Assembly: GCA_046484135.1 (NCBI GenBank)
Contig: JAWOBU010000017.1
Coordinates: 18,696 to 82,695 of the forward strand
Direction of reading: 5' to 3'
DNA length: 64,000 nucleotides
Source: a bacterium
GTDB lineage: Bacteria; RBG-13-61-14; DATKZS01
A program made the translations under genes and the position numbers. The notes beneath the pieces were generated by a model. That model was not told the origin of the DNA and did no database searches. It saw only the letters and a list, made by a program, of their open reading frames with translations. Positions 3,997 to 62,526 of this stretch are shown in pieces (the first letter of the stretch is position 1; every line of letters starts with the position of its first letter).

Positions 3997-5811
3997 ATGG
4001 AAGAGAAGAGCATCCCCGAAAAATTCTACAAGATGTCACAAGAGCATCCCGGCAGGACCATTTTCCGGAACAAGGAGAACGGGGCCTGGCGCGACATACC
4101 GTGGTCCGAGGTCTCGACCGCGGCCACGGAGATAGCGAACGGGCTGGCCTCGTGGGGGCTGGCTCCGGGAGAGCGGGTGTCCATCCTGTCCGAGAACCGG
4201 CTGGAGTGGATTTACTGTGACTTGGGCATCCTTTGCGCCGCGGGCGTCACCGTAACCATATATCCTTCCAACCTTCCCCACGAGATCGAGCACATTGTCA
4301 ACGACTCGGGCTCGCGGTTTATCGTGGTCTCCGGCGAAGGCCAGCTTGAAAAGCTCGCGGACCGCAAAGAGACCATGCCCGGCCTTGCCGGAGTGATTTC
4401 CATTGACGATGTCAAAGACCCGGCAGATGATGTGCTTTCCCTCGCCAAGCTCCGCGAGAAAGGCCGCGACTACGGCGAGTCAAATCCGGACGAGATAAAA
4501 AACCGCGTCCAAAACATAGACCCCGACGACCTGTGCACCATGGTCTATACCTCGGGAACCACCGGACCGCCCAAGGGAGTGATGACAACCCACAACAACA
4601 TCCTGTCCGTGTACAGGGCCATGGACGAAATCTTGAGTATTGACAAGGACCATGACTCCACGTTGTCCATCCTTCCTTACGCCCACGTTTACGAGCGGAT
4701 CGGCGGGGTCTTTAACGGCATGTTCTCGGGCATCACCATGTCCCTTTGCGAGGGACTCGAGAAGATAGCGGAGAACATCCAGGATGAAAAACCCACCATT
4801 GTTCTGGGAGCGCCCCGCCTGTACGAGAAGATGTACTCCGCCATCCAGCAGAACATCCAGTCGGCCGGTCCCGTAAAGCGGGGCCTTTTCGAGTGGTCGG
4901 TAAAAGCGGGCCGGGAAGCGAGCCCCTACCGGCTCTCCGGCAAGCCCATGCCTCTGGGCCTTCGAGTTCGAAACGCCATTGCCGGCAAGCTGGTCTTCAA
5001 CACCTTCAAACAGCGCTTCGGCGGCAGGATCCGTTTCTTCGTGTCTGCGGCCGCGCCCCTGTCCCGCGAGATCATCGAGTTTTTCCACGCCCTGGACATC
5101 ATGATCATCGAGGGATGGGGCATGACCGAGACCAGCGCGCCCAGCACGGTGAACCGGCCGGACAACATCCGGTTCGGGAGCGTGGGGCAGGAGATTCCGG
5201 GCTGCGAGGTCTCGATAGCTGACGACGGCGAGGTCCTGGTGCGTGGGGACAACGTGTTCAAGGGCTACTACTCGAAGGACGGGCCTATCCGGGAGGACTT
5301 CAACGATGAGGGCTGGTTCCACACCGGCGACATCGGGAGGATGGACGAGGACCGGTTTCTTTACATCACCGACCGCAAGAAGGACATCATCATCACCGCG
5401 GGCGGCAAGAACATCGCTCCGCAAAACATCGAGAACACCTTCAAGAACGACCTTTACATCTCCGAGGCCCTGGTCTTCGGCGACCGGCGCAAGTTCCTGG
5501 TGGCACTGTTCACCCTGGACGAGGAAGCCATCAAGGAATGGGCAAACCAACAGGGCATCGCCTACAAAGACTTTGCCGAGCTTACCCAGAAACCCGAGAC
5601 CTACAGGCATATCGAGTCGCGGGTCCGGGAGATAAATAAGACCCTTGCCAAGCACGAGTCCATCAAGCGCTTCCGCATCATGGACCGACAGTTCGAGCAG
5701 GACGCGGGCGAGGTGACCCCCACCATGAAGCTCAAGCGCAAGGTCCTGAACGAAAAGTTCGCGCCGCTTTTTGAAGAGATGTACCAGGGATTGGAGGACG
5801 GGGTCCTTTAA
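3997..5811 (+). CDS. Long-chain fatty acid-CoA ligase (AMP-forming)
   Basis: 604 aa; AMP-binding motif YTSGTTGPPKGV; TGDIGRMDEDRFLYITDRKKDIII; C-terminal TPTMKLKRK. Confidence 0.85.
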   Translation: MEEKSIPEKFYKMSQEHPGRTIFRNKENGAWRDIPWSEVSTAATEIANGLASWGLAPGERVSILSENRLEWIYCDLGILCAAGVTVTIYPSNLPHEIEHIVNDSGSRFIVVSGEGQLEKLADRKETMPGLAGVISIDDVKDPADDVLSLAKLREKGRDYGESNPDEIKNRVQNIDPDDLCTMVYTSGTTGPPKGVMTTHNNILSVYRAMDEILSIDKDHDSTLSILPYAHVYERIGGVFNGMFSGITMSLCEGLEKIAENIQDEKPTIVLGAPRLYEKMYSAIQQNIQSAGPVKRGLFEWSVKAGREASPYRLSGKPMPLGLRVRNAIAGKLVFNTFKQRFGGRIRFFVSAAAPLSREIIEFFHALDIMIIEGWGMTETSAPSTVNRPDNIRFGSVGQEIPGCEVSIADDGEVLVRGDNVFKGYYSKDGPIREDFNDEGWFHTGDIGRMDEDRFLYITDRKKDIIITAGGKNIAPQNIENTFKNDLYISEALVFGDRRKFLVALFTLDEEAIKEWANQQGIAYKDFAELTQKPETYRHIESRVREINKTLAKHESIKRFRIMDRQFEQDAGEVTPTMKLKRKVLNEKFAPLFEEMYQGLEDGVL

Positions 5812-5850
5812 AAACCTGCGCCACCGGCTTTTCATAGACCGGCTTCCAGC

Positions 5851-5879
5851 TTGATTGTTACCGGTCTGTTTTGTATGAT
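5851..5879 (+). promoter_or_regulatory. sigma70-like promoter TTGATT-17-TATGAT upstream of the symporter gene
   Basis: ttgatt 5851-5856, 17-nt spacer, tatgat 5874-5879. Confidence 0.4.
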
Positions 5880-5919
5880 GAACGCTGGCTAGACAAAGAA
5901 TATCCAAAGGAAGCTGTAA

Positions 5920-7632
5920 ATGGAAGACACGGTACAACTTGCGACTGTTGATTACCTGATCCTGGGGCTTTACTTTGTTTTCGTGCTGGGGATCGGATGG
6001 TGGCTGAAGCGGTACATGAAGACCAGCACCGACTTTTTCCTGTCCGGCCGCTCGATCCCCGCCTGGATCGCGGGCCTGGCTTTTCTTTCGGCCAACCTGG
6101 GCGCCCAGGAAGTCATCGGCATGGCGGCCTCCGGCGCCAAGTACGGGATCATGACCAGCCACTTCTACTGGATCGGGGCCATACCCGCCATGGTGTTCGT
6201 AGGCATCTTCATGATGCCGTTTTATTACGGCTCCAAGGTCCGGTCGGTGCCGGAGTTTTTGAAGTTCCGGTTCGACGAAAAGACGCGGGGCTTTAACGCG
6301 TTCACTTTTGCGGCCATGACCATCCTGTCTTCCGGCATCTCCATGTACGCCCTGGCCATACTTTTCGAGGTCATGCTGGGCTGGAACTTCAGCTTCAGCA
6401 TCTGGATCTCGGCCATTATCGTGCTCGCTTACATCTTCCTGGGCGGGCTGACCTCGGCCATATACAACGAGGTGCTCCAGTTCTTCCTGATCGTGCTCGG
6501 GTTCCTCCCGCTCGTCATCCTGGGTCTTGCAGACATGGGCGGATGGGAAGGACTCACAACCAAGCTCTCCGAGATGGCCACTGACAAGGGATACGCCGCG
6601 GGCGCCTGGACCAATTCCTGGCAACACACCGGGGACGCGGCGCACAACCCCATGGGGGTCGAATGGTTCGGCATCGCCATGGGACTGGGGTTTGTGCTTT
6701 CCTTTGCTTACTGGTGCACCGACTTTCTGGTCATTCAAAGGGCCATGGCCGCGGACTCCATGCTCTCTTCCCGCCGGACGCCGCTTATCGCCGCGGTACC
6801 CAAGATGATCTTCCCGCTTCTGGTCATCGTGCCCGGGATGATAGCCATCGCACTCCAGCACAGCACCGGTTTCGAGCTTCCCTTGAACGAGGAGGGACAG
6901 ACCAACTACAACATGGCCATCCCCATGCTCCTGGTCCATTACTTCCCGCACGGTCTCCTGGGATTGGGGATCACCGCCTTGATGGCCAGCTTTATGTCCG
7001 GCATGGCCGGCAATATCACCGCCTTTAACACGGTATGGACCTACGACATCTATCAGAGCTATGTAAAGCCCGGCAAGTCGGACGAGCACTACCTGTGGAT
7101 GGGAAGGTTCGCCACCGTCTTCGGGGTCGTCTTGAGCGTCCTTGCCGCGTACCTCACCACCAAGTTCGACAACATCATGGACATGCTCCAGTTGATCTTT
7201 GCTTTCGTGAACGCGCCCCTTTTCGCCACCTTCCTGCTCGGAATGTTCTGGAAGAGGGCCACCGGACACGGCGCGTTTATCGGCCTTATTACGGGGACCT
7301 TGTCCGCGGCGCTCCATCACGGGCTTACTCAGCCCATCGGCTCGACCACGCTCTACAAGGGAGGCTGGCTGGGAACAGTGCTTCACGAGTATCCGAGCGA
7401 GATGGCCCAGAACTTCTGGACCGCTATCGTGGCCTGGACCGTGTGCTTCGTGGTTACCATCATCGTGTCTTTTATTACCCGGCAGTTGAAGAGCGACGAA
7501 GAGCTGAAAGGTCTGGTGTACTCGCTCACGCCCAAGATCAAGGAGGAGGGAGTGGCCTGGTATCAGAGGCCGGGTCTGTTCGGAATCATTGTACTTTTGG
7601 CCGCTCTTATCCTGAACATTATCTTCTTCTAG
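5920..7632 (+). CDS. Sodium:solute symporter family (SSS) transporter
   Basis: 570 aa, about 13 TM; SSS-like N-terminus YLILGLYFVFVLGIGWW...FFLSGRS and GLGITALMASFMSGMAG. Confidence 0.85.
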   Translation: MEDTVQLATVDYLILGLYFVFVLGIGWWLKRYMKTSTDFFLSGRSIPAWIAGLAFLSANLGAQEVIGMAASGAKYGIMTSHFYWIGAIPAMVFVGIFMMPFYYGSKVRSVPEFLKFRFDEKTRGFNAFTFAAMTILSSGISMYALAILFEVMLGWNFSFSIWISAIIVLAYIFLGGLTSAIYNEVLQFFLIVLGFLPLVILGLADMGGWEGLTTKLSEMATDKGYAAGAWTNSWQHTGDAAHNPMGVEWFGIAMGLGFVLSFAYWCTDFLVIQRAMAADSMLSSRRTPLIAAVPKMIFPLLVIVPGMIAIALQHSTGFELPLNEEGQTNYNMAIPMLLVHYFPHGLLGLGITALMASFMSGMAGNITAFNTVWTYDIYQSYVKPGKSDEHYLWMGRFATVFGVVLSVLAAYLTTKFDNIMDMLQLIFAFVNAPLFATFLLGMFWKRATGHGAFIGLITGTLSAALHHGLTQPIGSTTLYKGGWLGTVLHEYPSEMAQNFWTAIVAWTVCFVVTIIVSFITRQLKSDEELKGLVYSLTPKIKEEGVAWYQRPGLFGIIVLLAALILNIIFF

Positions 7633-17600: not shown

Positions 17601-17945
17601 ATGAAAAAGGTAGTAATCGTAGGCTGTGGCGCGTACATGGACAGCGGCTACGGCTGTCCCGGCGAATGGAGATGTTTAAAGGCCGCGGCTTTGGGAGAAG
17701 GAAACTTTGAGGAGCCGGTCCAGGTAGTGGGCTTTGTCAAATGCGAATGTCCGGGCAGAAGCGCGGCCCCCAACGTGGGCATGACCAAGAAGCTCTCCGA
17801 GGTCGAGCCGGATGCGGTATATCTGTCATCTTGCCTGGTCAACGCCAAGCCGCCTTGTCCCTATGCGAGCGCGGACGATCTGGCAGGGGCCATTCAAAAA
17901 AAGACCGGCCTTACCGTGAAGCTGGGCACGCACGAGTATCACTGA
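17601..17945 (+). CDS. CGGC-domain protein
   Basis: 114 aa; VVIVGCGAYMDSGYGCPGEWRC...VKCECPGR...SSC: cysteine pattern of the CGGC family. Confidence 0.6.
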   Translation: MKKVVIVGCGAYMDSGYGCPGEWRCLKAAALGEGNFEEPVQVVGFVKCECPGRSAAPNVGMTKKLSEVEPDAVYLSSCLVNAKPPCPYASADDLAGAIQKKTGLTVKLGTHEYH

Positions 17946-29786: not shown

Positions 29787-30326
29787 GTGATGAAGATAGC
29801 AGTGATATCCGATACCCACATTCACGGGGGAAGTTATCACCCCAAAAAGCTCATGAGCCGTTTCATCAACAAGGTGGACCAGCAGGCGGAACAGCTTTGC
29901 GAGCTGGTCCGGCCGTGGTTTCATGACGCGGACGTTGTAATCCACGCGGGCGACTTTGTAAGCTATGCGGTTGTGACCGCGCTGGAGGAGTTCGCTCCGG
30001 TGGAAGGTGTGGCCGGCAACATGGACCCGCAGGAAATCCGTTCGCGACTTCCGGTCAAGACGGTGGTCAAGGCAGGGAGCCGTCGCATCGGGGTGATCCA
30101 CGGCCACGGCGCTCCGCACGGCATGGAAAAGCGGGTGCGGCCGGAGTTCGAGGACGTGGACTGCATAGTTTTCGGGCACACTCATCATCCTTTCAACGCA
30201 GAGGTGGGCGGCGTTCAGATGTTTAACCCGGGCAGCCCCACTGACAAGAGATGGGCCCCTTCCCACGGGATCGGCCTCATCCACGTAGAAGACACCTTGC
30301 GTTGCGAGAACGTGGCCCTGGACTGA
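29787..30326 (+). CDS. Metallophosphoesterase (YfcE/MJ0936-like phosphodiesterase)
   Basis: MKIAVISDTHIHGG; IHAGDF; GHTHHP metallophosphatase motifs. Confidence 0.75.
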   Translation: MMKIAVISDTHIHGGSYHPKKLMSRFINKVDQQAEQLCELVRPWFHDADVVIHAGDFVSYAVVTALEEFAPVEGVAGNMDPQEIRSRLPVKTVVKAGSRRIGVIHGHGAPHGMEKRVRPEFEDVDCIVFGHTHHPFNAEVGGVQMFNPGSPTDKRWAPSHGIGLIHVEDTLRCENVALD

Positions 30327-30449
30327 GGCGGGCCTGATAACCGAGCTCGTGCTTTTTTCAGAAGCAAAAGCTCTCTTGCACAAACCGCCCTGGTTTTGTA
30401 TTCTGTTCGCACTGATCGGCATCCTTATTTCCTGTTTTTTAAGTTTTTG

Positions 30450-31142
30450 ATGAAGAAACGAGAAGAAATCATTTCCCGGGTGGACGTATTTTTCGCTCTC
30501 GGCAACAGGGAGCGTCGTTCGCTGGTGGAGACGTCTAAAGAGGTCAAGCTGGACCCGCGCAACCCGTTGTTTCAGCAGGGAGCCACTGCGGAGTGGGCCT
30601 ATGTCATCGGGAACGGCCATATTAAGACTTTCAGCTCCGGTCCCAATGGCCGCCGACTCCTGGTTGATTTTATTCAGCCGGGCGACCTAGTGGGAGAGGA
30701 GTCCGTTCTTTTCGGAGGGGACTACGAGGTAGACGCTGTTTCTATCGGTCCTTGCCGGGTCCTGGCACTGCCCGCCTCTGCCCTGCGGGAGTCCATCGAG
30801 TCAAGCCCACGGACCGGCTTCGCTCTGGGCGCACTGACCGCCTCCCGGGCCCGCGCCTATCGGGAGAGGCTTTGTCTGGTCAGCACCTGCCCGGTGCAGA
30901 TTCGGCTTATCTCGGTCCTTCACCATCTGGCCCGCCGTTTCGGGCAGCGACATCGAAGCGGCACCATGCTCGGCATCAAGGTCACTCATCAGGATCTGGC
31001 CGACTACATCGGCGCTTCGCGGGAGACGGTTTCCCACCTTCTCTCCAGTTTGCGGGAACAGGGCATCATCGCCAACAACGTCCGGAGGCTGGTGGTCCCT
31101 GACATGAAGGCCTTGAAAAGGATGGCGGAACACAAGGAGTGA
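30450..31142 (+). CDS. Crp/Fnr-family transcriptional regulator
   Basis: cNMP-binding beta-roll (GDLVGEESVLFGG) + C-terminal HTH (ASRETVSHLLSSLREQGII). Confidence 0.8.
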   Translation: MKKREEIISRVDVFFALGNRERRSLVETSKEVKLDPRNPLFQQGATAEWAYVIGNGHIKTFSSGPNGRRLLVDFIQPGDLVGEESVLFGGDYEVDAVSIGPCRVLALPASALRESIESSPRTGFALGALTASRARAYRERLCLVSTCPVQIRLISVLHHLARRFGQRHRSGTMLGIKVTHQDLADYIGASRETVSHLLSSLREQGIIANNVRRLVVPDMKALKRMAEHKE

Positions 31143-31145
31143 GCT

Positions 31146-32996
31146 TCACTTTTGGGCGGGCTCGGTTTCCGGCAAGACCACCATGCACTGGAGAAAACGG
31201 GGGTCAATGTCGGAAAGCCGGAGGCGGCCAGCTTCCTGTTCCAGCCGGGACAGGGAGAAGTCCACGAACTCCCGGGCCTTGGCGCGCCATGCCTCGCCGG
31301 CTTCTTCCGAGTCGGAAAGCGCCTTTTCCACCCGTGCCAGCAGGTCGGAGCGAACATCCTCGTGCACCTTGCGGGGGACCTCGCGGGTCATGGCGATCTC
31401 GAGGGCGGACCGGGCGTCCTTCTCGCTCAGGGGAGCGAACACCAGCTCGCCGCCGGCCAGCACCCGGCAGAGAGCGGTGATGAACACGGTGGAGAAGGAA
31501 AGCTCATGGCCGGTGTAATACTGCTTTAAAAACCCTATGTCCTGATCGGTAAGCCCGAGCGACTCGAAGAGCAAGGCCCCCACCGCCTCGGCAAGCAACA
31601 GGGTCTCGCGTGCTTTGTCCACCTCTTCGAAAGAGCTGAACTCCTTGTAAACCGGGGCCCCCTCCGAGTCGGTCCCTTGATACTGCTTGGGCCGCTCGAG
31701 CGCAAGACCACCGATTATTGCGGCGTCTTCCCCCAGAAGCTCCCGGCTGTAGTCGGTCCGTGACATCCACCCTTTTTCCAGAAGGCGGTTCGACCGACGC
31801 GCAAGCAGGAGCACCTCGGTAAAGCCGGCCCGGAAGATGTTTATTATGTTCTGGGAGTACAAAAGCCGGGCGGCCCGCTCCGGCTCTCCGCCGGACCAGC
31901 GCCGGAGGCCCATCTCGATGTAGAGGTAAGCTTTGTGAAGGACCTTTTTTACATTCTCGATCTTGTTCAGGTCCATGCCGTCCGCGATCAGAAGCCGATT
32001 GACAAGCCCTCCCGTTTCCATGGCCAGCGTCTCCCGCCGCACCCGGTCAGCGATCTCTCTCAAAGCCGATGCAAAAAGCTCGGGCGGCTCGGCCAGAGCC
32101 AACGGATACTCCGGGACCGGCCCTCTGCCCGGAGGAGGAGCCGCGCTTTCCTCCGCTTCTTTCTCGAGACGCGAAAGCTCGGCGTCGGAAAGAGGAGCGT
32201 AAACCTCGATCGCCTCCTCGAACGGCACAAACCCGTAATCGGCGAGCCGGGCGGTGCGGAACCGGAACGCCTCGCTTTCCGCCTCCAGCGGCAGGGACCC
32301 TTCTATATACTCGAGCAGGCCATAGTAACGCATGTCCTCCTCGGCCCGGATCTGCTCGAGGACCCTTTCCAGTGCAGGCGCCGTCTTAGGTTCGTAAAAA
32401 TGAAGGTAATAGACGTTGTCCAACGACCACAGGTTCTGGAAATCCCGCCACGGCTCCGCCCCTTCATTGTCCGGGTCTGTCTTGTACACCCGGAAGAACT
32501 TGCCGAAGGCGGACACCAGGAGCTCTTCCTCCGCCTGTTGGAACCATTTGACCGGCACGTCGGGCCCGGCGCACGAAAGCAGGTTTAGCCAGTAAACAAC
32601 AGCCAGCGTATCGAGCCTGTCATGGTGCCACCATTCCAGGTCGAAGATATGCTGTATCTGCTCCGGCCGGGCCATGCCCAGAAGATCGAGGGAGTCCTCG
32701 TCCCCCATCTGTTTGACCGTGATCCAGAACTCCGGCTCCGGAAGCTCCTTGACCAGGGCCTCTGCGTCTTGCGAGAGCATGAGGAGATCGAAACGGGCGC
32801 GGCCGGAAAATCTGGTTACCAGCTCGGCCCGGTCCTCCAGCCGGAGCGAATCGAGTATCAGCCGGGCCGACTCGGGATCATCCCGGATAAGGGTGCGGTC
32901 CAGCCGGGAGAGGGCCTGCTCTACCTGGTCGGTGAGCTCAGTGCGCTCTGGTCCCTCGCTTCCAGCGTCTTTGCGGTTGGTTTTGTCAGGTTTCAT
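31146..32996 (-). CDS. Hypothetical 616-aa soluble protein, unknown family, last gene of the grx-like/FDR-like operon
   Basis: Long ORF with coding-like composition, same strand and 72-nt spacing from the FDR-like gene. No recognisable motifs. Confidence 0.5.
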   Translation of the reverse strand: MKPDKTNRKDAGSEGPERTELTDQVEQALSRLDRTLIRDDPESARLILDSLRLEDRAELVTRFSGRARFDLLMLSQDAEALVKELPEPEFWITVKQMGDEDSLDLLGMARPEQIQHIFDLEWWHHDRLDTLAVVYWLNLLSCAGPDVPVKWFQQAEEELLVSAFGKFFRVYKTDPDNEGAEPWRDFQNLWSLDNVYYLHFYEPKTAPALERVLEQIRAEEDMRYYGLLEYIEGSLPLEAESEAFRFRTARLADYGFVPFEEAIEVYAPLSDAELSRLEKEAEESAAPPPGRGPVPEYPLALAEPPELFASALREIADRVRRETLAMETGGLVNRLLIADGMDLNKIENVKKVLHKAYLYIEMGLRRWSGGEPERAARLLYSQNIINIFRAGFTEVLLLARRSNRLLEKGWMSRTDYSRELLGEDAAIIGGLALERPKQYQGTDSEGAPVYKEFSSFEEVDKARETLLLAEAVGALLFESLGLTDQDIGFLKQYYTGHELSFSTVFITALCRVLAGGELVFAPLSEKDARSALEIAMTREVPRKVHEDVRSDLLARVEKALSDSEEAGEAWRAKAREFVDFSLSRLEQEAGRLRLSDIDPRFLQCMVVLPETEPAQK

Positions 32997-33068
32997 TATG
33001 AAAAGATACTAATAAGAAGAAACACTTACTGCAAGGAGAGTTTACAAGGTTCCGCGGGCTGGGGCTAC

Positions 33069-33584
33069 TCACCCGGCCGGGAACTCGAACCCTTCAAACC
33101 GCTCTTTGCGAACTTTACACACGGGGCATTTTTCCGGCGGCTCGTCGCGGGCGCACAGGTAGCCGCACACCCGGCAACGCCAGACCGGAATTCCGGACTT
33201 GCTCTCCATGGGCTTCTTCTCCTTCTCCGCTTTTCTTTCTTCTTCCGAGGGTCTTCTTTCCGGGATGGGCTCGGCTTCTTTTTCCCCCTTTACCACTGCG
33301 TCGGACACATACAGCGCGCAGTAACAGGTGCCGTAATCGTTAAGATCGGGGTCTCGATAATCGCACGGGCAGATGATGTCCAGGTCTTTCTCCGGGTCCC
33401 CCTCGAGCAGGCGGCATGGACAGCCCATGTAGCCGTACCTTTGCTCGTTCTGGACCAGCCCCTCGCAGAGCATGAGCGTCATCTCCCGGTCGGGGTTGAG
33501 ATGATACCCGGCAGCCTCGGCCTCCCGGTCGAGCTTGTCCATGAGCTTTTCCGCCTTGTCCTTAAGCTCAAAGTCTTCGATCAT
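33069..33584 (-). CDS. Ferredoxin:thioredoxin-reductase catalytic-subunit-like protein fused to a C-terminal rubredoxin domain (FDR-like)
   Basis: [10 protein letters not shown]...CPCDYRD...CYC cysteine pattern of FtrC; C-terminal CRVCGY...CPVC rubredoxin knuckles. Confidence 0.7.
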
Positions 33585-33844
33585 CCCAGCACCTCCTGGA
33601 AGCGCTCCGGCTTGTAGCCCTGGATGATCTCCTCCCCCTCGTTAACCACCACCAGGGGGAAGCTCAGCTTGGAGGTGAACTTCAAAGCGCGGTTCTTGGC
33701 CGCCTCCTTTTCGTCCCCCTCGATCTGGTCCATGTAAGTCAGCTCGTAATCCACCCGGTGCTCGTCCAGCCACTCCCGGGTCTTCCTGCACCACCCGCAG
33801 GTGCTGAGTGCAAAGAACTCTACCTTGCGTCCCGGTTCCGACAT
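33581..33844 (-). CDS. Glutaredoxin-like/NrdH-like small thiol-disulfide oxidoreductase
   Basis: 87 aa; active site STCGWC; thioredoxin-fold length; overlaps the FDR-like start by 4 nt. Confidence 0.7.
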
Positions 33845-34033
33845 TCCATCCCCTCCTCATTCGTTCGAGAGGTTCAAGGGTTACGTTAAGATACCGTTGC
33901 AAAGAAATTCACCGGTTTGTCTGCCTTGCTTTGCAACGGTCTCGCCTCACCGCACACCCGCTGAACTTGACTCCATAATAACATTAACACAATCATAAAC
34001 AACCCTCCCAAAATCCGCACGGTTTGGCTGGTT

Positions 34034-34175
34034 TGGGGTCAGATCTTTACAATTAAGTTTATGGCGAATGTGGTGAGCCGCCCCTTCCTCTCGCCGGATC
34101 GGACATTGCGCCGGGAAAATCAGGAATTATTCATGGCCTAAGAACATCTAAACTTAATTGTAAAGATCTGACCCC
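34034..34175. repeat. Perfect 27-bp inverted repeats (ggggtcagatctttacaattaagttta / taaacttaattgtaaagatctgacccc) flanking an 88-bp core; MITE-like or long-stem regulatory element
   Basis: Arms at 34034-34060 and 34149-34175, located exactly between the hisD stop and the upstream region of the grx-like operon. Confidence 0.85.
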
Positions 34176-34177
34176 GC

Positions 34178-35494
34178 CTATTTCTTTTTCTCTTTTTTAT
34201 CACGCTCGGGAAGGCGGGAGAGAACGGCGCGGGCGTGTGCTTTGAGTCCTTCCAGGTCTGCGAAGCGGGCGGTGGCTTCGCGGATTCCGGCGAGCCCTTC
34301 TTTGGACAGCCTGGTTACGCTTTGGCGTTTTACGAAATCCTGTACTCCGAGGGGCGAGCTGAATCGGGCGGTGCCGCCGGTGGGAAGCACGTGGTTCGCT
34401 CCCGCGGTGTAGTCTCCCGCGGGCACGGGCGAGTACGGTCCCAGGAACACACTGCCGGCGTTGTTTACGGTGTCCGCGAACTTCTGCGGTTTTTTCACGA
34501 TGATTTCGAGGTGCTCGGGCGCGATGCGGTTCACTATTGCCGACGCCTGTTCCAGGTCCTTTACAAGGATGGCGGAGACGCTGGCCGCGGGATCGGGGTT
34601 GTCCTCGATCTCGGGCAGCTCTTCAACCAGTTTTTTCAGTTCCCGCTCGACCTTTTTAACAAGGTCGTCGGAAGTGGTAACCAGGATGGAGACGGAGTCC
34701 GGTCCGTGCTCGGCCTGGGATAAAAGGTCCGCGGCCACTGCTTCGGCAGGGGCGCTCTCGTCCGCGACCACCACTATCTCGCTGGGACCGGCCACCGCGT
34801 CTGTGCCGCACAGTCCGCGGGAGTCGGCAATGGTCTTGGCCGCGGCCACCCACGAGCTTCCCGGCCCCACGATCTTGTCCGCCCGGGGGATTGAAGCGGT
34901 GCCGCAGGCCAGTGCGGCGATTCCCTGCACTCCCCCGACCTTGTAGACCGCGTCAACTCCGGCCGAGCGGGCCGCGGCGAGCACGCAGGGGTTCAGCTTG
35001 CCCCCCGGACAGGGCGTTATCATGATGATCTCTTTTACGCCTGCGATCTGCGCGGGGATAGCTGTCATGAGCACGGTGGAAGCGAGCGGGAACCTTCCGC
35101 CGGGTATGTAGACACCCGCCCTTTGCAGGGGAATGATCCTCTCTTTTATCACCGTGCCTTTGTTGTCATTATAGGTGAAGCCTTTTGGCGACTGCTTTTT
35201 ATGGAATGCCCGGATTCTTTTGGCTGCGAGCTCGATCACGTCAAGGTCGGAGCGGGAGACCTCGCCCAGGGCTCGCGAGATTTCCGCGTCAGTAACTTTT
35301 ACGGTGTTTGCGTCAATCTCGTGGTTTTCGAGCTCGCGGGTCCACTTGAAAAGCGCGGTGTCTCCTTGTGCGGTCACCTCGTCAAATATCTTCGCCGCTT
35401 TTTCCATGACATCCGGAGGCACTTCATGGATGCCGGAGAGGAATTGATTAAGCTCTTTTTCAAAGTTTTTGTCAGCGTGGCTTATGAGCTTCAT
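34178..35494 (-). CDS. hisD: Histidinol dehydrogenase
   Basis: 438 aa; conserved HisD core ...[11 protein letters not shown]...SQAEHGPDS...HLE. Confidence 0.9.
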
Positions 35495-36927: not shown

Positions 36928-38634
36928 TTACTGTTTATCGGACTCCGGTTTAGTGGTTCTTGTAAAGATGCGCAGCCCTCCTTCCAGGGATTTGGCGTTT
37001 TGGAAGCCCTTGCCCTTGAGCATCTGGAGGACCTCGTAAGAGCGCTGTCCGAGCTGACAGATGATGATAAGCGGCTTGTCGCGCGGCAGCTCGTCCGCCT
37101 TCTGTCGGATTTCGTGCATGTCAATGGCGATGCTGCGCTTATCTTCAATGGGCGGCCTTGCTTTCAGCTCGCCTTGGGTGCGGACGTCGATCATCACAAA
37201 GTCGCGGTCCGAGCCGAGCAGCTCGAAGAGCTCGAACGCCGATATGGTTTCCGCCATGCCGGAGAGCTTGTTCAGCGCGATATTGGCGGCATTTGCGAGG
37301 GGGGTGACGGGCGCGCCAAAAGGGGGCGCGTAACAGAAGTCCATGTAGGCCAGGTCTTCCAGGGTCGCTCCATAGCGCAGGGCGGATGCCGCCGCATCCA
37401 CGACCCGTGCCACGTCTCCCGCGCCCACCACCTGGCATCCGAGGACCCGGCGGGTGGTTTTGTCCGCCACCAGCTTGATGGCCAGGTCTTTTCCGCCCGG
37501 GAAGAAGTGGGACTTGTCGTTCGCGGTGTTGATGCCGGTAACGGTGTCGAAGCCGAGCTCGCCGGCTTTGCTGTCGGTGATGCCGGTGTATCCTACGTTA
37601 GTTCCCAGGGTCTTCATGATGCCGGTTCCCAGTACGCCCGGGAACGTGGAGTCCATTCCTGTAAGGTTGTCGCCGATCACGCGTCCGTGCATGTTGGCGG
37701 TCGAGCCGAGGGGGTTCCAGGTTTTTTGTCCGGTAACCAGGTGATGGTTCTCCACGCAGTCGCCTCCCGCGAAGATATGAGGATCATTGGTCTTGAGATA
37801 CTCGTCCACCTTTATGGCCCCCAGGTCTCCTATGTCCAGGCCGGAGTCTTTGGCGAGCTCGATGTTCGGTTTGGCGCCCATGGCAAGGATCACCGCGTCG
37901 GTCTCGATCTCGCCCGCTTCCGTTATCACCTTCTTGACCTGTCCGTTCTCTCCTTCGAAGGACTTCACCCCCTGACACAGGCATATCTCGATGTTCTCCT
38001 CCCGCAGAGCGTAAGAGACCAGCTCGGCCATGTCCTGGTCCAGCGGGCCGTAGAGCACCTGGGGCATGATGTCCACCAGGTGGGTGTCCACCGCTTGGTT
38101 CATGAGGGCCTCGCAGGACTCGATCCCGATAAGACCGGCGCCGATAACGCAGATGCGGTCGGCCTCGCCCGCCTCGATCTTCTCGCGGATCACCTGGGCG
38201 TCTTTCATGGACCACAGGTTCCAGATGCGGTCCAGGTCCGCGCCCGGCAGGGGCGGCACCTGCGGAGATGCGCCGGTAGAGAGGACCAGTTGGTCGTAGG
38301 GAAGCGAAGACTCATTGCCGGTTTGCAGGTCTTTGATCCGTACTTCTTTTTTGTCCCGGTCAATGGCCAACGCTTCTGTGTTTATCATGGCGTTTATGTT
38401 TTTTACGTGGTGGAAGTAATCGGGGTCCCGAAAGGTCCCGTGGGTGGTTGAGATCAGCTTGTCAATGTCCGGGACCACACCGCCCACGTAGTAAGGCAGT
38501 CCGCAGCTCGCATAAGACACGTGAGGCTTGCGTTCGATAATAGTGATCTCAGCTTCAGGGTCGCGCCGGCGGGCCCGCGCCGCAGCCTTGGGACCGCAGG
38601 CTACTCCTCCGATAATCACGATCTTCTGACCCAT
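36928..38634 (-). CDS. CoA-disulfide reductase / NADH-dependent persulfide reductase with C-terminal rhodanese domain (CoADR-RHD)
   Basis: FAD motif IVIIGGVACGPKAA; redox-active SYASCGLPY; C-terminal rhodanese with active-site loop CQLGQRS. Confidence 0.8.
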   Translation of the reverse strand: MGQKIVIIGGVACGPKAAARARRRDPEAEITIIERKPHVSYASCGLPYYVGGVVPDIDKLISTTHGTFRDPDYFHHVKNINAMINTEALAIDRDKKEVRIKDLQTGNESSLPYDQLVLSTGASPQVPPLPGADLDRIWNLWSMKDAQVIREKIEAGEADRICVIGAGLIGIESCEALMNQAVDTHLVDIMPQVLYGPLDQDMAELVSYALREENIEICLCQGVKSFEGENGQVKKVITEAGEIETDAVILAMGAKPNIELAKDSGLDIGDLGAIKVDEYLKTNDPHIFAGGDCVENHHLVTGQKTWNPLGSTANMHGRVIGDNLTGMDSTFPGVLGTGIMKTLGTNVGYTGITDSKAGELGFDTVTGINTANDKSHFFPGGKDLAIKLVADKTTRRVLGCQVVGAGDVARVVDAAASALRYGATLEDLAYMDFCYAPPFGAPVTPLANAANIALNKLSGMAETISAFELFELLGSDRDFVMIDVRTQGELKARPPIEDKRSIAIDMHEIRQKADELPRDKPLIIICQLGQRSYEVLQMLKGKGFQNAKSLEGGLRIFTRTTKPESDKQ

Positions 38635-61934: not shown

Positions 61935-62082
61935 GGAGAAGTGTGGCCCGGGTTAAATATAGATCGTGTAGGGATGTGTAATAGACGGTCGGCAACAATT
62001 TTTGTTTTAATGGTCGTCTAGAGTAGTTTCAGTGGGAATTATTCCCGAAAAATCATTTACGAAGAAAACAGGAGGAAAGGAT

Positions 62083-62526
62083 ATGCCAAGTTTTGTCATT
62101 CCTGAAAAATGCGACGGGTGCAAGGCGCTGGACAAGACCGCTTGCCAGTACATTTGCCCCAACGACCTCATGGTGCTCAACCGGGACATCATGAAGGCGT
62201 ACAACCGGGAGCCGGAGATGTGCTGGGAGTGCTACAACTGCGTGAAGATTTGCCCCACCCAGGCCGTCGAGGTCCGCGGTTATGCTGATTTCGTGCCCAT
62301 GGGAGCGGCGGTTACCCCCATGCGCAGCACCGATTCCATCATGTGGACGGTGAAGTTCAGAAGCGGTCAGCTCAAAAGGTTCAAGTTCCCCATCCGGACC
62401 ACTGCGGAGGGACAGGCCAAGCCCGACGGCGACTTCGGCGAGGGAAGCGGCGATCTCAAGGACTCCGCCACCCTCTTTACCGAGCCGGCCTCCCTGGGGC
62501 TCGACGCAGTTTGGACGAAAAAGTAA
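62083..62526 (+). CDS. aprB: Adenylylsulfate reductase beta subunit
   Basis: MPSFVIPEKCDGCKALDKTACQYICPNDLMVLN...CWECYNCVKICP: two [4Fe-4S] motifs and the AprB C-terminal tail; RBS ggagga. Confidence 0.9.
   Translation: MPSFVIPEKCDGCKALDKTACQYICPNDLMVLNRDIMKAYNREPEMCWECYNCVKICPTQAVEVRGYADFVPMGAAVTPMRSTDSIMWTVKFRSGQLKRFKFPIRTTAEGQAKPDGDFGEGSGDLKDSATLFTEPASLGLDAVWTKK

Follow-up and report, generated by a model that had tools for sequence, protein, structure and literature searches.

The best described counterparts of the proteins considered here are the ferredoxin:disulfide reductases (FDRs) of Methanosarcina, which combine a catalytic domain of the ferredoxin:thioredoxin reductase (FTR) type with a rubredoxin domain. 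The structure deposited in the PDB as 'Rubredoxin' under accession 4TPU is the FTR-like ferredoxin:disulfide reductase of M. acetivorans, and the FDR genes of Methanosarcina presumably sit with those for class III ribonucleotide reductase. In classical FTR, the third cysteine motif of the catalytic domain is CHC. Glutaredoxin-like NrdH is given as the reductant of NrdD3-type enzymes in Table 1 of a paper that cites Wei et al., and the FDR/NrdH-like system is not known to have any published client besides class III ribonucleotide reductase. Here, we describe a bacterial locus at which genes of this type adjoin one of another family. It lies within a stretch of 64,000 nucleotides of a metagenome-assembled genome (MAG; GCA_046484135.1, contig JAWOBU010000017.1, positions 18,696 to 82,695 of the forward strand), referred to below as the window, and consists of a gene for a glutaredoxin-like (Grx-like) protein, a gene for an FDR and a gene for a large protein of the DUF6178 family, all on one strand. 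Although the arrangement has the appearance of a redox operon with a client gene at its end, we consider it likely that the Grx–FDR pair and DUF6178 are two independent units that have recently become neighbours.

Gene order at the locus and in related genomes

The three genes are consecutive open reading frames on the minus strand, encoding the 87-residue Grx-like protein (33581-33844; active site C16-G-W-C19), the 171-residue FDR, a fusion of an FTR catalytic domain (FTRc) with a rubredoxin (33069-33584), and the 616-residue DUF6178 protein (31146-32996). The first two form a bicistron: they overlap by 4 bp (ATGA), such that the ATG of the FDR gene overlaps the stop codon of the Grx-like gene, and each is preceded by a GGAGG Shine-Dalgarno sequence. 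A gap of 72 bp separates the stop codon of the FDR gene from the start of DUF6178. A gene for a regulator of the Crp/Fnr family lies on the plus strand (30450-31142, with the ATG at 30450 as its probable start; Pfam cNMP_binding, HTH_Crp_2 and Crp) and is convergent on DUF6178, the two stop codons being 3 bp apart; hisD and murA are found upstream of the Grx-like gene on the same strand as it. The features that the first-pass annotation of this DNA had named are all present at the coordinates it gave. The 616-residue protein, which that annotation had called one of unknown family, is instead a full-length member of Pfam PF19676 (423.2 bits against a gathering cut-off of 25.5, E 1.9e-126, model positions 4-560 of 561). 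The GenBank record containing the exact proteins names them, in gene order, 'glutaredoxin family protein', 'ferredoxin-thioredoxin reductase catalytic domain-containing protein' and 'DUF6178 family protein' (MFO8055944.1).

The first-pass annotation had proposed that DUF6178 is a dedicated target or partner of the redox pair and had itself named a lack of co-conservation of the three genes as grounds for rejecting the idea; such a lack is what was observed. Other DUF6178 loci were gathered by pattern scans of genome and metagenome collections, together with look-ups of exact proteins, giving 20 loci whose homologs are 26-68% identical to the window protein. An alignment spanning the whole family (A1) was too divergent for genome scanning and a narrower one (A2) served as the query, so that the sample is biased to a clade of 27% identity or more. 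Look-ups of the exact DUF6178 and FDR proteins of the window returned no record. When these loci were searched by tblastn with the Grx-like protein and FDR of the window, neither was detected in any of the 20. The same separation is seen from the side of the redox pair. In five other FDR contexts (FDR identity 89, 84, 68, 68 and 63%), a gene for a glutaredoxin of 87-92 residues invariably lies directly upstream with a 4-bp overlap, which makes six of six lineages read when the window is counted, and DUF6178 adjoins FDR in none of the five. What follows FDR is a B12-binding radical SAM enzyme (L021/L022), an amino-acid permease (L025), proteins without a Pfam match (L028/L029) or, in two cases, a small open reading frame on the opposite strand (L023/L024 and L026/L027). 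Because the gene after FDR varies while the Grx–FDR overlap persists, the conserved unit is the bicistron and not a tricistron.

The two closest relatives of the window are decisive in this respect. The MAG GCA_964420375 has DUF6178 (68% identity, the closest full locus) behind a Memo gene on contig CAYQTK010000021, with the Grx–FDR pair (FDR 89% identical) on CAYQTK010000023, followed by a radical SAM gene; in assembly ERZ27241908, DUF6178 (64%) is on k141_315166 and Grx–FDR (84%) on k141_891687. The pairs adjoin unrelated genes in both. A 2.7-kb fragment (L030), in which DUF6178 is 92% identical to that of the window, has the C-terminus of FDR upstream and the Crp gene convergent downstream, and is the only locus to share the order of the window. 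That the order is confined to so close a relative indicates that the juxtaposition is recent, at the level of species or genus.

The arrangement that is usual for DUF6178 in the clade nearest the window is a different one. There, the order ApbA-NYN-ABC-F-SDR-Memo-like-DUF6178, followed by a convergent Crp gene, is found in L002/L011, L003, L006/L007/L010 and L008; L001 has the same order upstream of DUF6178, its contig stopping just past that gene. The Memo-DUF6178 pair alone is also present in L013, L019 and the contig of homolog P0016. No homolog of Memo or SDR is encoded anywhere in the 64 kb of the window. In the lineage of the window, a grx-fdr cassette with its own upstream region sits where the relatives have the Memo-like gene. 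The region upstream of the bicistron (33845-34034, minus strand) can be aligned in part with what precedes grx in L021 and L023, which suggests that the cassette brought its control region with it when it moved.

DUF6178 also appears to be equipped with start signals of its own. The 45 bp upstream of it contain a -35-like TTGCAG (33034-33029), a 17-nucleotide spacer and a -10-like TAGTAT (33011-33006), followed after 9 nucleotides by the ATG at 32996; no Shine-Dalgarno sequence precedes this ATG. The arrangement TTG(C/A)A-N17-TA(G/A)TAT-N9-ATG is kept in the window, L030, L001 and L006, in two of which the upstream gene is FDR and in the other two Memo. The motif (33006-33034, minus strand) may thus be a dedicated DUF6178 promoter, which would give a nearly leaderless mRNA. 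As a separate point, the start called for the homolog in L006 (P0003, TTG at 6001; region ~5950-6003) probably lies downstream of the true one; an in-frame ATG ~45 nucleotides upstream of it coincides with the conserved ATAATG context of the window, L030 and L001.

Several observations weigh against the two-unit reading. The putative promoter fits the sigma-70 consensus at only seven of 12 positions, and a consensus scan did not pick it up; no terminator is predicted on the minus strand in the 72-bp gap between FDR and DUF6178; and the order FDR-DUF6178-Crp, being present in both the window and L030, is stable at least at the level of species or genus. Read-through, with co-transcription from grx-fdr into DUF6178, is physically possible. 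One could accordingly suppose that the three genes do form an operon and that the FDR/Grx relay has in DUF6178 a substrate or partner dedicated to it; the shared strand, the short gap lacking a predicted terminator and the preservation of the FDR-DUF6178 order in L030 are as this would require. Such an operon is nonetheless very improbable given that neither partner is found with the other in the 20 and five contexts described above, that the genes are on separate contigs in the two closest relatives, that DUF6178 has no conserved cysteine (those of the window protein are not a gain specific to its lineage; see below) and that the gene keeps its own upstream motif without a Shine-Dalgarno sequence. 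A narrower version would be that, in this lineage only, the move of grx-fdr created a co-transcribed unit in which DUF6178 takes part in the relay without using cysteines, perhaps as its scaffold or regulator. We give this equally little credence; if it were true, a family of more than 3600 clusters, the fold of which is unmatched, would gain its first link to a function. The independence of the two units remains the reading that we favour, and no role in thiol redox chemistry should be given to DUF6178 on the strength of what looks like a 'redox operon with an orphan client'.

The glutaredoxin–FDR pair

The FDR of the window has the complete set of FTR-catalytic cysteines (CPC at residues 55-57, CPC at 72-74 and CYC at 87-89), joined by a linker rich in Lys and Glu to a C-terminal rubredoxin domain with the knuckle pair C137xxC140/C153xxC156. 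Pfam recognizes both parts, as FeThRed_B (PF02943, E 1.9e-21) and the rubrerythrin-type rubredoxin RUBY_RBDX (PF21349, E 2.3e-15). The protein matches 4TPU over its full length (residues 9-166, E 6.9e-62); all ten cysteines of the cluster, the disulfide and the rubredoxin are aligned with those of 4TPU, and the rubredoxin part corresponds to residues ~140-171 of the latter. The family is very large, with 7898 of 8000 scored candidates at E <= 1e-10, and some NCBI records name its members 'ferredoxin:glutaredoxin reductase'. Membership of the NCBIfam equivalog FtrB_double_U (NF041072) was considered and rejected, the score of 67.8 bits against a cut-off of 160 marking FDR as related to that group and not a member of it.

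The Grx-like protein matches Pfam Glutaredoxin (PF00462, E 3.5e-8) and, along its entire length, the Methanosarcina glutaredoxins of PDB entries 3NZN (E 5e-16) and 5CAX (E 1.4e-14), the CxWC motif included. It is likewise related to, and not a member of, the YruB-family equivalog of NCBIfam (TIGR02196; 43.7 bits, cut-off 88.55). Evidence for a common function of the two proteins includes a natural fusion, the single chain of PDB entry 7PWE, in which residues 4-83 correspond to the Grx-like protein of the window (E 2.5e-8, with CGFC in place of CGWC) and residues 83-192 to its FTRc domain (E 4e-33). Such a fusion is evidence of the Rosetta-stone kind that the two window proteins act together. 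The first-pass annotation had described them as an electron donor and a disulfide relay, and this view is borne out by the matches to 4TPU, 3NZN and 5CAX, by the recurrent overlapping bicistron and by the 7PWE fusion. Judged from their sequences, the two proteins are a predicted electron-donor and disulfide-relay pair, a new bacterial copy of the already known FDR/NrdH-like type, and the bicistron that encodes them is a tightly conserved bacterial module.

The path of the electrons can be proposed from homologous proteins that have been solved or assayed. Reduced ferredoxin, or another low-potential donor, would reduce the Fe(Cys)4 centre of the rubredoxin domain, from which electrons would pass to the FTR-catalytic domain, whose CPC, CPC and CYC motifs would hold the [4Fe-4S] cluster and, next to it, a redox-active disulfide. 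This domain would then reduce the CGWC dithiol of the Grx-like protein which, in turn, would reduce the disulfides of client proteins. Such clients would not be encoded beside the pair. A search of the 64-kb window for a glycyl-radical (NrdD-like) motif returned only a coincidental RVCGY inside the rubredoxin domain.

The 190 bp upstream of the bicistron (33845-34034) comprise an AT-rich, promoter-like stretch and an imperfect inverted repeat of 18 nucleotides (33890-33907 and 33926-33943, 89% complementary, arms 18 nucleotides apart), ~50-100 bp from the start of grx, which may be an operator or a hairpin in the 5' untranslated region of the grx-fdr unit. Beyond this region is a 141-bp element (34035-34175, no strand assigned) that starts 3 nucleotides past the stop codon of hisD and separates that gene from the Grx–FDR unit. 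It is bounded by perfect terminal inverted repeats of 27 nucleotides, GGGGTCAGATCTTTACAATTAAGTTTA (two matches, with none expected), and its predicted RNA fold has an energy of -66.5 kcal/mol (z-score -7.5). No other copy was detected in the window or in 30 other loci searched, and an Rfam search over 30000-35000 gave nothing. The element may be a large terminator hairpin or, alternatively, an insertion resembling a miniature inverted-repeat transposable element that marks a rearrangement boundary.

Farther upstream of the pair, in the order of murA-hisD-grx-fdr and on the same strand, is a gene (36928-38634, minus strand) for a 568-residue pyridine-nucleotide disulfide oxidoreductase with a C-terminal rhodanese domain, of the CoA-disulfide-reductase/rhodanese type; it is a second gene for thiol or sulfur redox chemistry within 3 kb of grx-fdr. 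The window also encodes AprB, the beta subunit of adenosine 5'-phosphosulfate reductase (62032-62526, plus strand), and a CGGC-domain protein (17601-17945, plus strand). Together, the last two genes point to dissimilatory sulfur metabolism in the host, in agreement with the labelling of relatives as Deltaproteobacteria.

In this setting it might be asked whether the pair, instead of supporting ribonucleotide reduction, acts in the trafficking of sulfur or Fe-S clusters or in defence against peroxide. In L025 (287-4513) and L026 (422-4513), where FDR is 68% identical to that of the window, the pair comes after genes for TusA, DsrE, a cysteine desulfurase and NifU/IscU, and also AhpC or a nitroreductase; the AprB gene of the window and the CoA-disulfide-reductase/rhodanese gene 3 kb upstream of the pair would be in keeping with such a role. 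However, the neighbours of L025 and L026 are not beside the pair in the window, L021, L023 or L028, and the one published client known for the Grx–FDR system is the class III reductase. We therefore regard a role in sulfur trafficking or peroxide defence as rather doubtful.

The DUF6178 protein and its neighbours

The DUF6178 family is large, numbering 3633 representatives when clustered at 50% identity, and a literature search found no paper that mentions it. In the alignment A1 of 22 sequences, 14 columns are invariant (G, Q, D, W, D, R, R, G, A, G, P, F, T and P); there is neither Cys nor His among them, and no Cys in the near-invariant columns. The window protein has cysteines at positions 142, 510 and 604. 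Since C510 and C604 are also present in P0002 and P0003, the genes for which are not beside FDR, the window cysteines are not specific to the lineage in which DUF6178 adjoins FDR.

A model of the full protein obtained with AlphaFold2 is confident (predicted local distance difference test score (pLDDT) 89, predicted template modelling score 0.84; pLDDT 90.9 for the N-terminal half) and shows a soluble, mostly alpha-helical protein with ~35 helices and two small beta-hairpins. No meaningful match emerged from sequence searches of the PDB with either the single sequence or the 22-sequence profile, and a Foldseek search of the PDB with the full model returned only alpha-solenoid noise of low template modelling (TM) score (best E 0.056, TM 0.13). 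The one hint, weak and nonsignificant, concerns the N-terminal ~130 residues, which are possibly FliG/MgtE_N-like, the rest being unmatched. FliG and the cytoplasmic domain of MgtE top the Foldseek list for the N-terminal half, and Pfam MgtE_N (PF03448) gives E 0.026 on an N-terminal fragment and E 0.003-0.03 for five of the 22 aligned members (best 0.0029). The resemblance does not reach significance: the Foldseek hits have E 0.1-1 and TM <=0.36, the Pfam matches are all below the cut-off and hhalign of DUF6178 with E. coli FliG gives a probability of 0.3%. Domain fusions in the relatives P0094, P0173, P0063, P0112 and P0161 were not informative, no real match to the PADLOC defence models was obtained and tblastn against plasmids gave no match. 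Our best guess, made with low confidence, is that DUF6178 is a cytoplasmic, non-enzymatic scaffold for binding or sensing and not a thiol-redox client.

A different set of partners is suggested by the genes that do accompany DUF6178. A Memo-like protein (~410 residues, PF01875, with an N-terminal extension of ~115-130 residues) is encoded directly upstream of it in L001, L002, L003, L006, L008, L013 and L019, the gap narrowing to 4 bp in L008. On the P0016 contig, genes for a glycyl-radical enzyme and its activase come after the Memo-DUF6178 pair. The Crp-family gene, whose product has cNMP-binding and Crp helix-turn-helix domains (Pfam), is found in convergent orientation beside DUF6178 in the window, L002, L003, L006, L008 and L030, with 43-86% identity between the regulators. 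The convergent regulator to which the first-pass annotation drew attention is real, and it is conserved next to DUF6178 and not next to the redox pair. The regulator lacks the N-terminal cysteines of an FNR-type [4Fe-4S] cluster, and its three cysteines are not conserved among orthologs, for which reason redox sensing by means of them was rejected. No canonical FNR or CRP box was detected in the three intergenic regions.

It can be supposed from these associations that DUF6178, the Crp-family regulator and the Memo-like protein act jointly as one conserved module, perhaps with DUF6178 as a sensor or effector under the control of the regulator, to which the adjacency of grx-fdr would be irrelevant. 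The Crp gene is kept beside DUF6178 in six lineages, including that of the window, in which both outer flanks of the DUF6178-Crp pair are rearranged, and Memo lies directly upstream of DUF6178 in at least eight loci, with gaps of 4-240 bp. On the other hand, the whole ApbA-NYN-ABC-F-SDR-Memo-DUF6178-Crp block is syntenic in related MAGs, for which shared ancestry may suffice; most of the lineages with Crp beside DUF6178 share this block, and a functional link is for that reason only a modest possibility. More distant members of the family have quite different neighbours (among them a ParA-like ATPase, an ABC ATPase, an MFS transporter, a GAF protein and a nucleotidyl transferase), the intergenic regions are devoid of Crp/FNR boxes, and convergent genes cannot be co-transcribed. 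We hold the module as a tentative proposal, somewhat unlikely as matters stand. It should be noted that, in L018 (DUF6178 of ~30% identity), a gene for a ParA/MinD-type ATPase (AAA_31, 4105-4962) overlaps the start of DUF6178 (4959-6671) by 4 bp, with a gene for an HTH_17/coiled-coil protein following; this overlap could be a lead to the function of DUF6178. What novelty the locus retains lies with this protein. Its family is large, its structure is predicted with confidence and finds no match in the PDB, its start may be leaderless and, within a limited set of lineages, it is linked to a Crp-family regulator and a Memo-like protein.

Comparison with known systems

In sequence terms, the 616-residue protein does not differ from the Pfam family DUF6178, of which it is an end-to-end member, and the comparison with described systems is thus one of the redox pair. 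The plant and cyanobacterial FTRs (PDB entries 1DJ7, 2PU9 and 7BZK) belong to the same PF02943 fold family and share the CPC...CPC...CxC framework, although they match the window FDR only weakly in the PDB (E ~1e-3). The window differs from them in having no gene for the variable subunit, in the addition of a rubredoxin domain, in a partner that is Grx/NrdH-like where theirs is a classical thioredoxin and in its third motif, CYC. The protein of 7PWE ('Ferredoxin-thioredoxin reductase subunit B', 196 residues) contains both window modules in identical order; it is, however, a single polypeptide without a rubredoxin, whereas the window has two translationally coupled genes and an appended rubredoxin.

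The closest resemblance is to the Methanosarcina FDRs (4TPU and the M. barkeri enzyme of Wei et al. 2015). These have the same FTR catalytic domain with a C-terminal rubredoxin, in a protein of almost the same length (171 residues in the window and 173 in Methanosarcina), and the same kind of partner, the product of a small Grx/NrdH-like gene. The active site of the Methanosarcina NrdH-like glutaredoxins is CVWC, in contrast to CGWC in the window. The hosts also differ, being a methanogen in the one case and a bacterium whose MAG carries dissimilatory sulfur genes in the window in the other, and neither nrdD nor nrdG is present within the 64 kb of the window.

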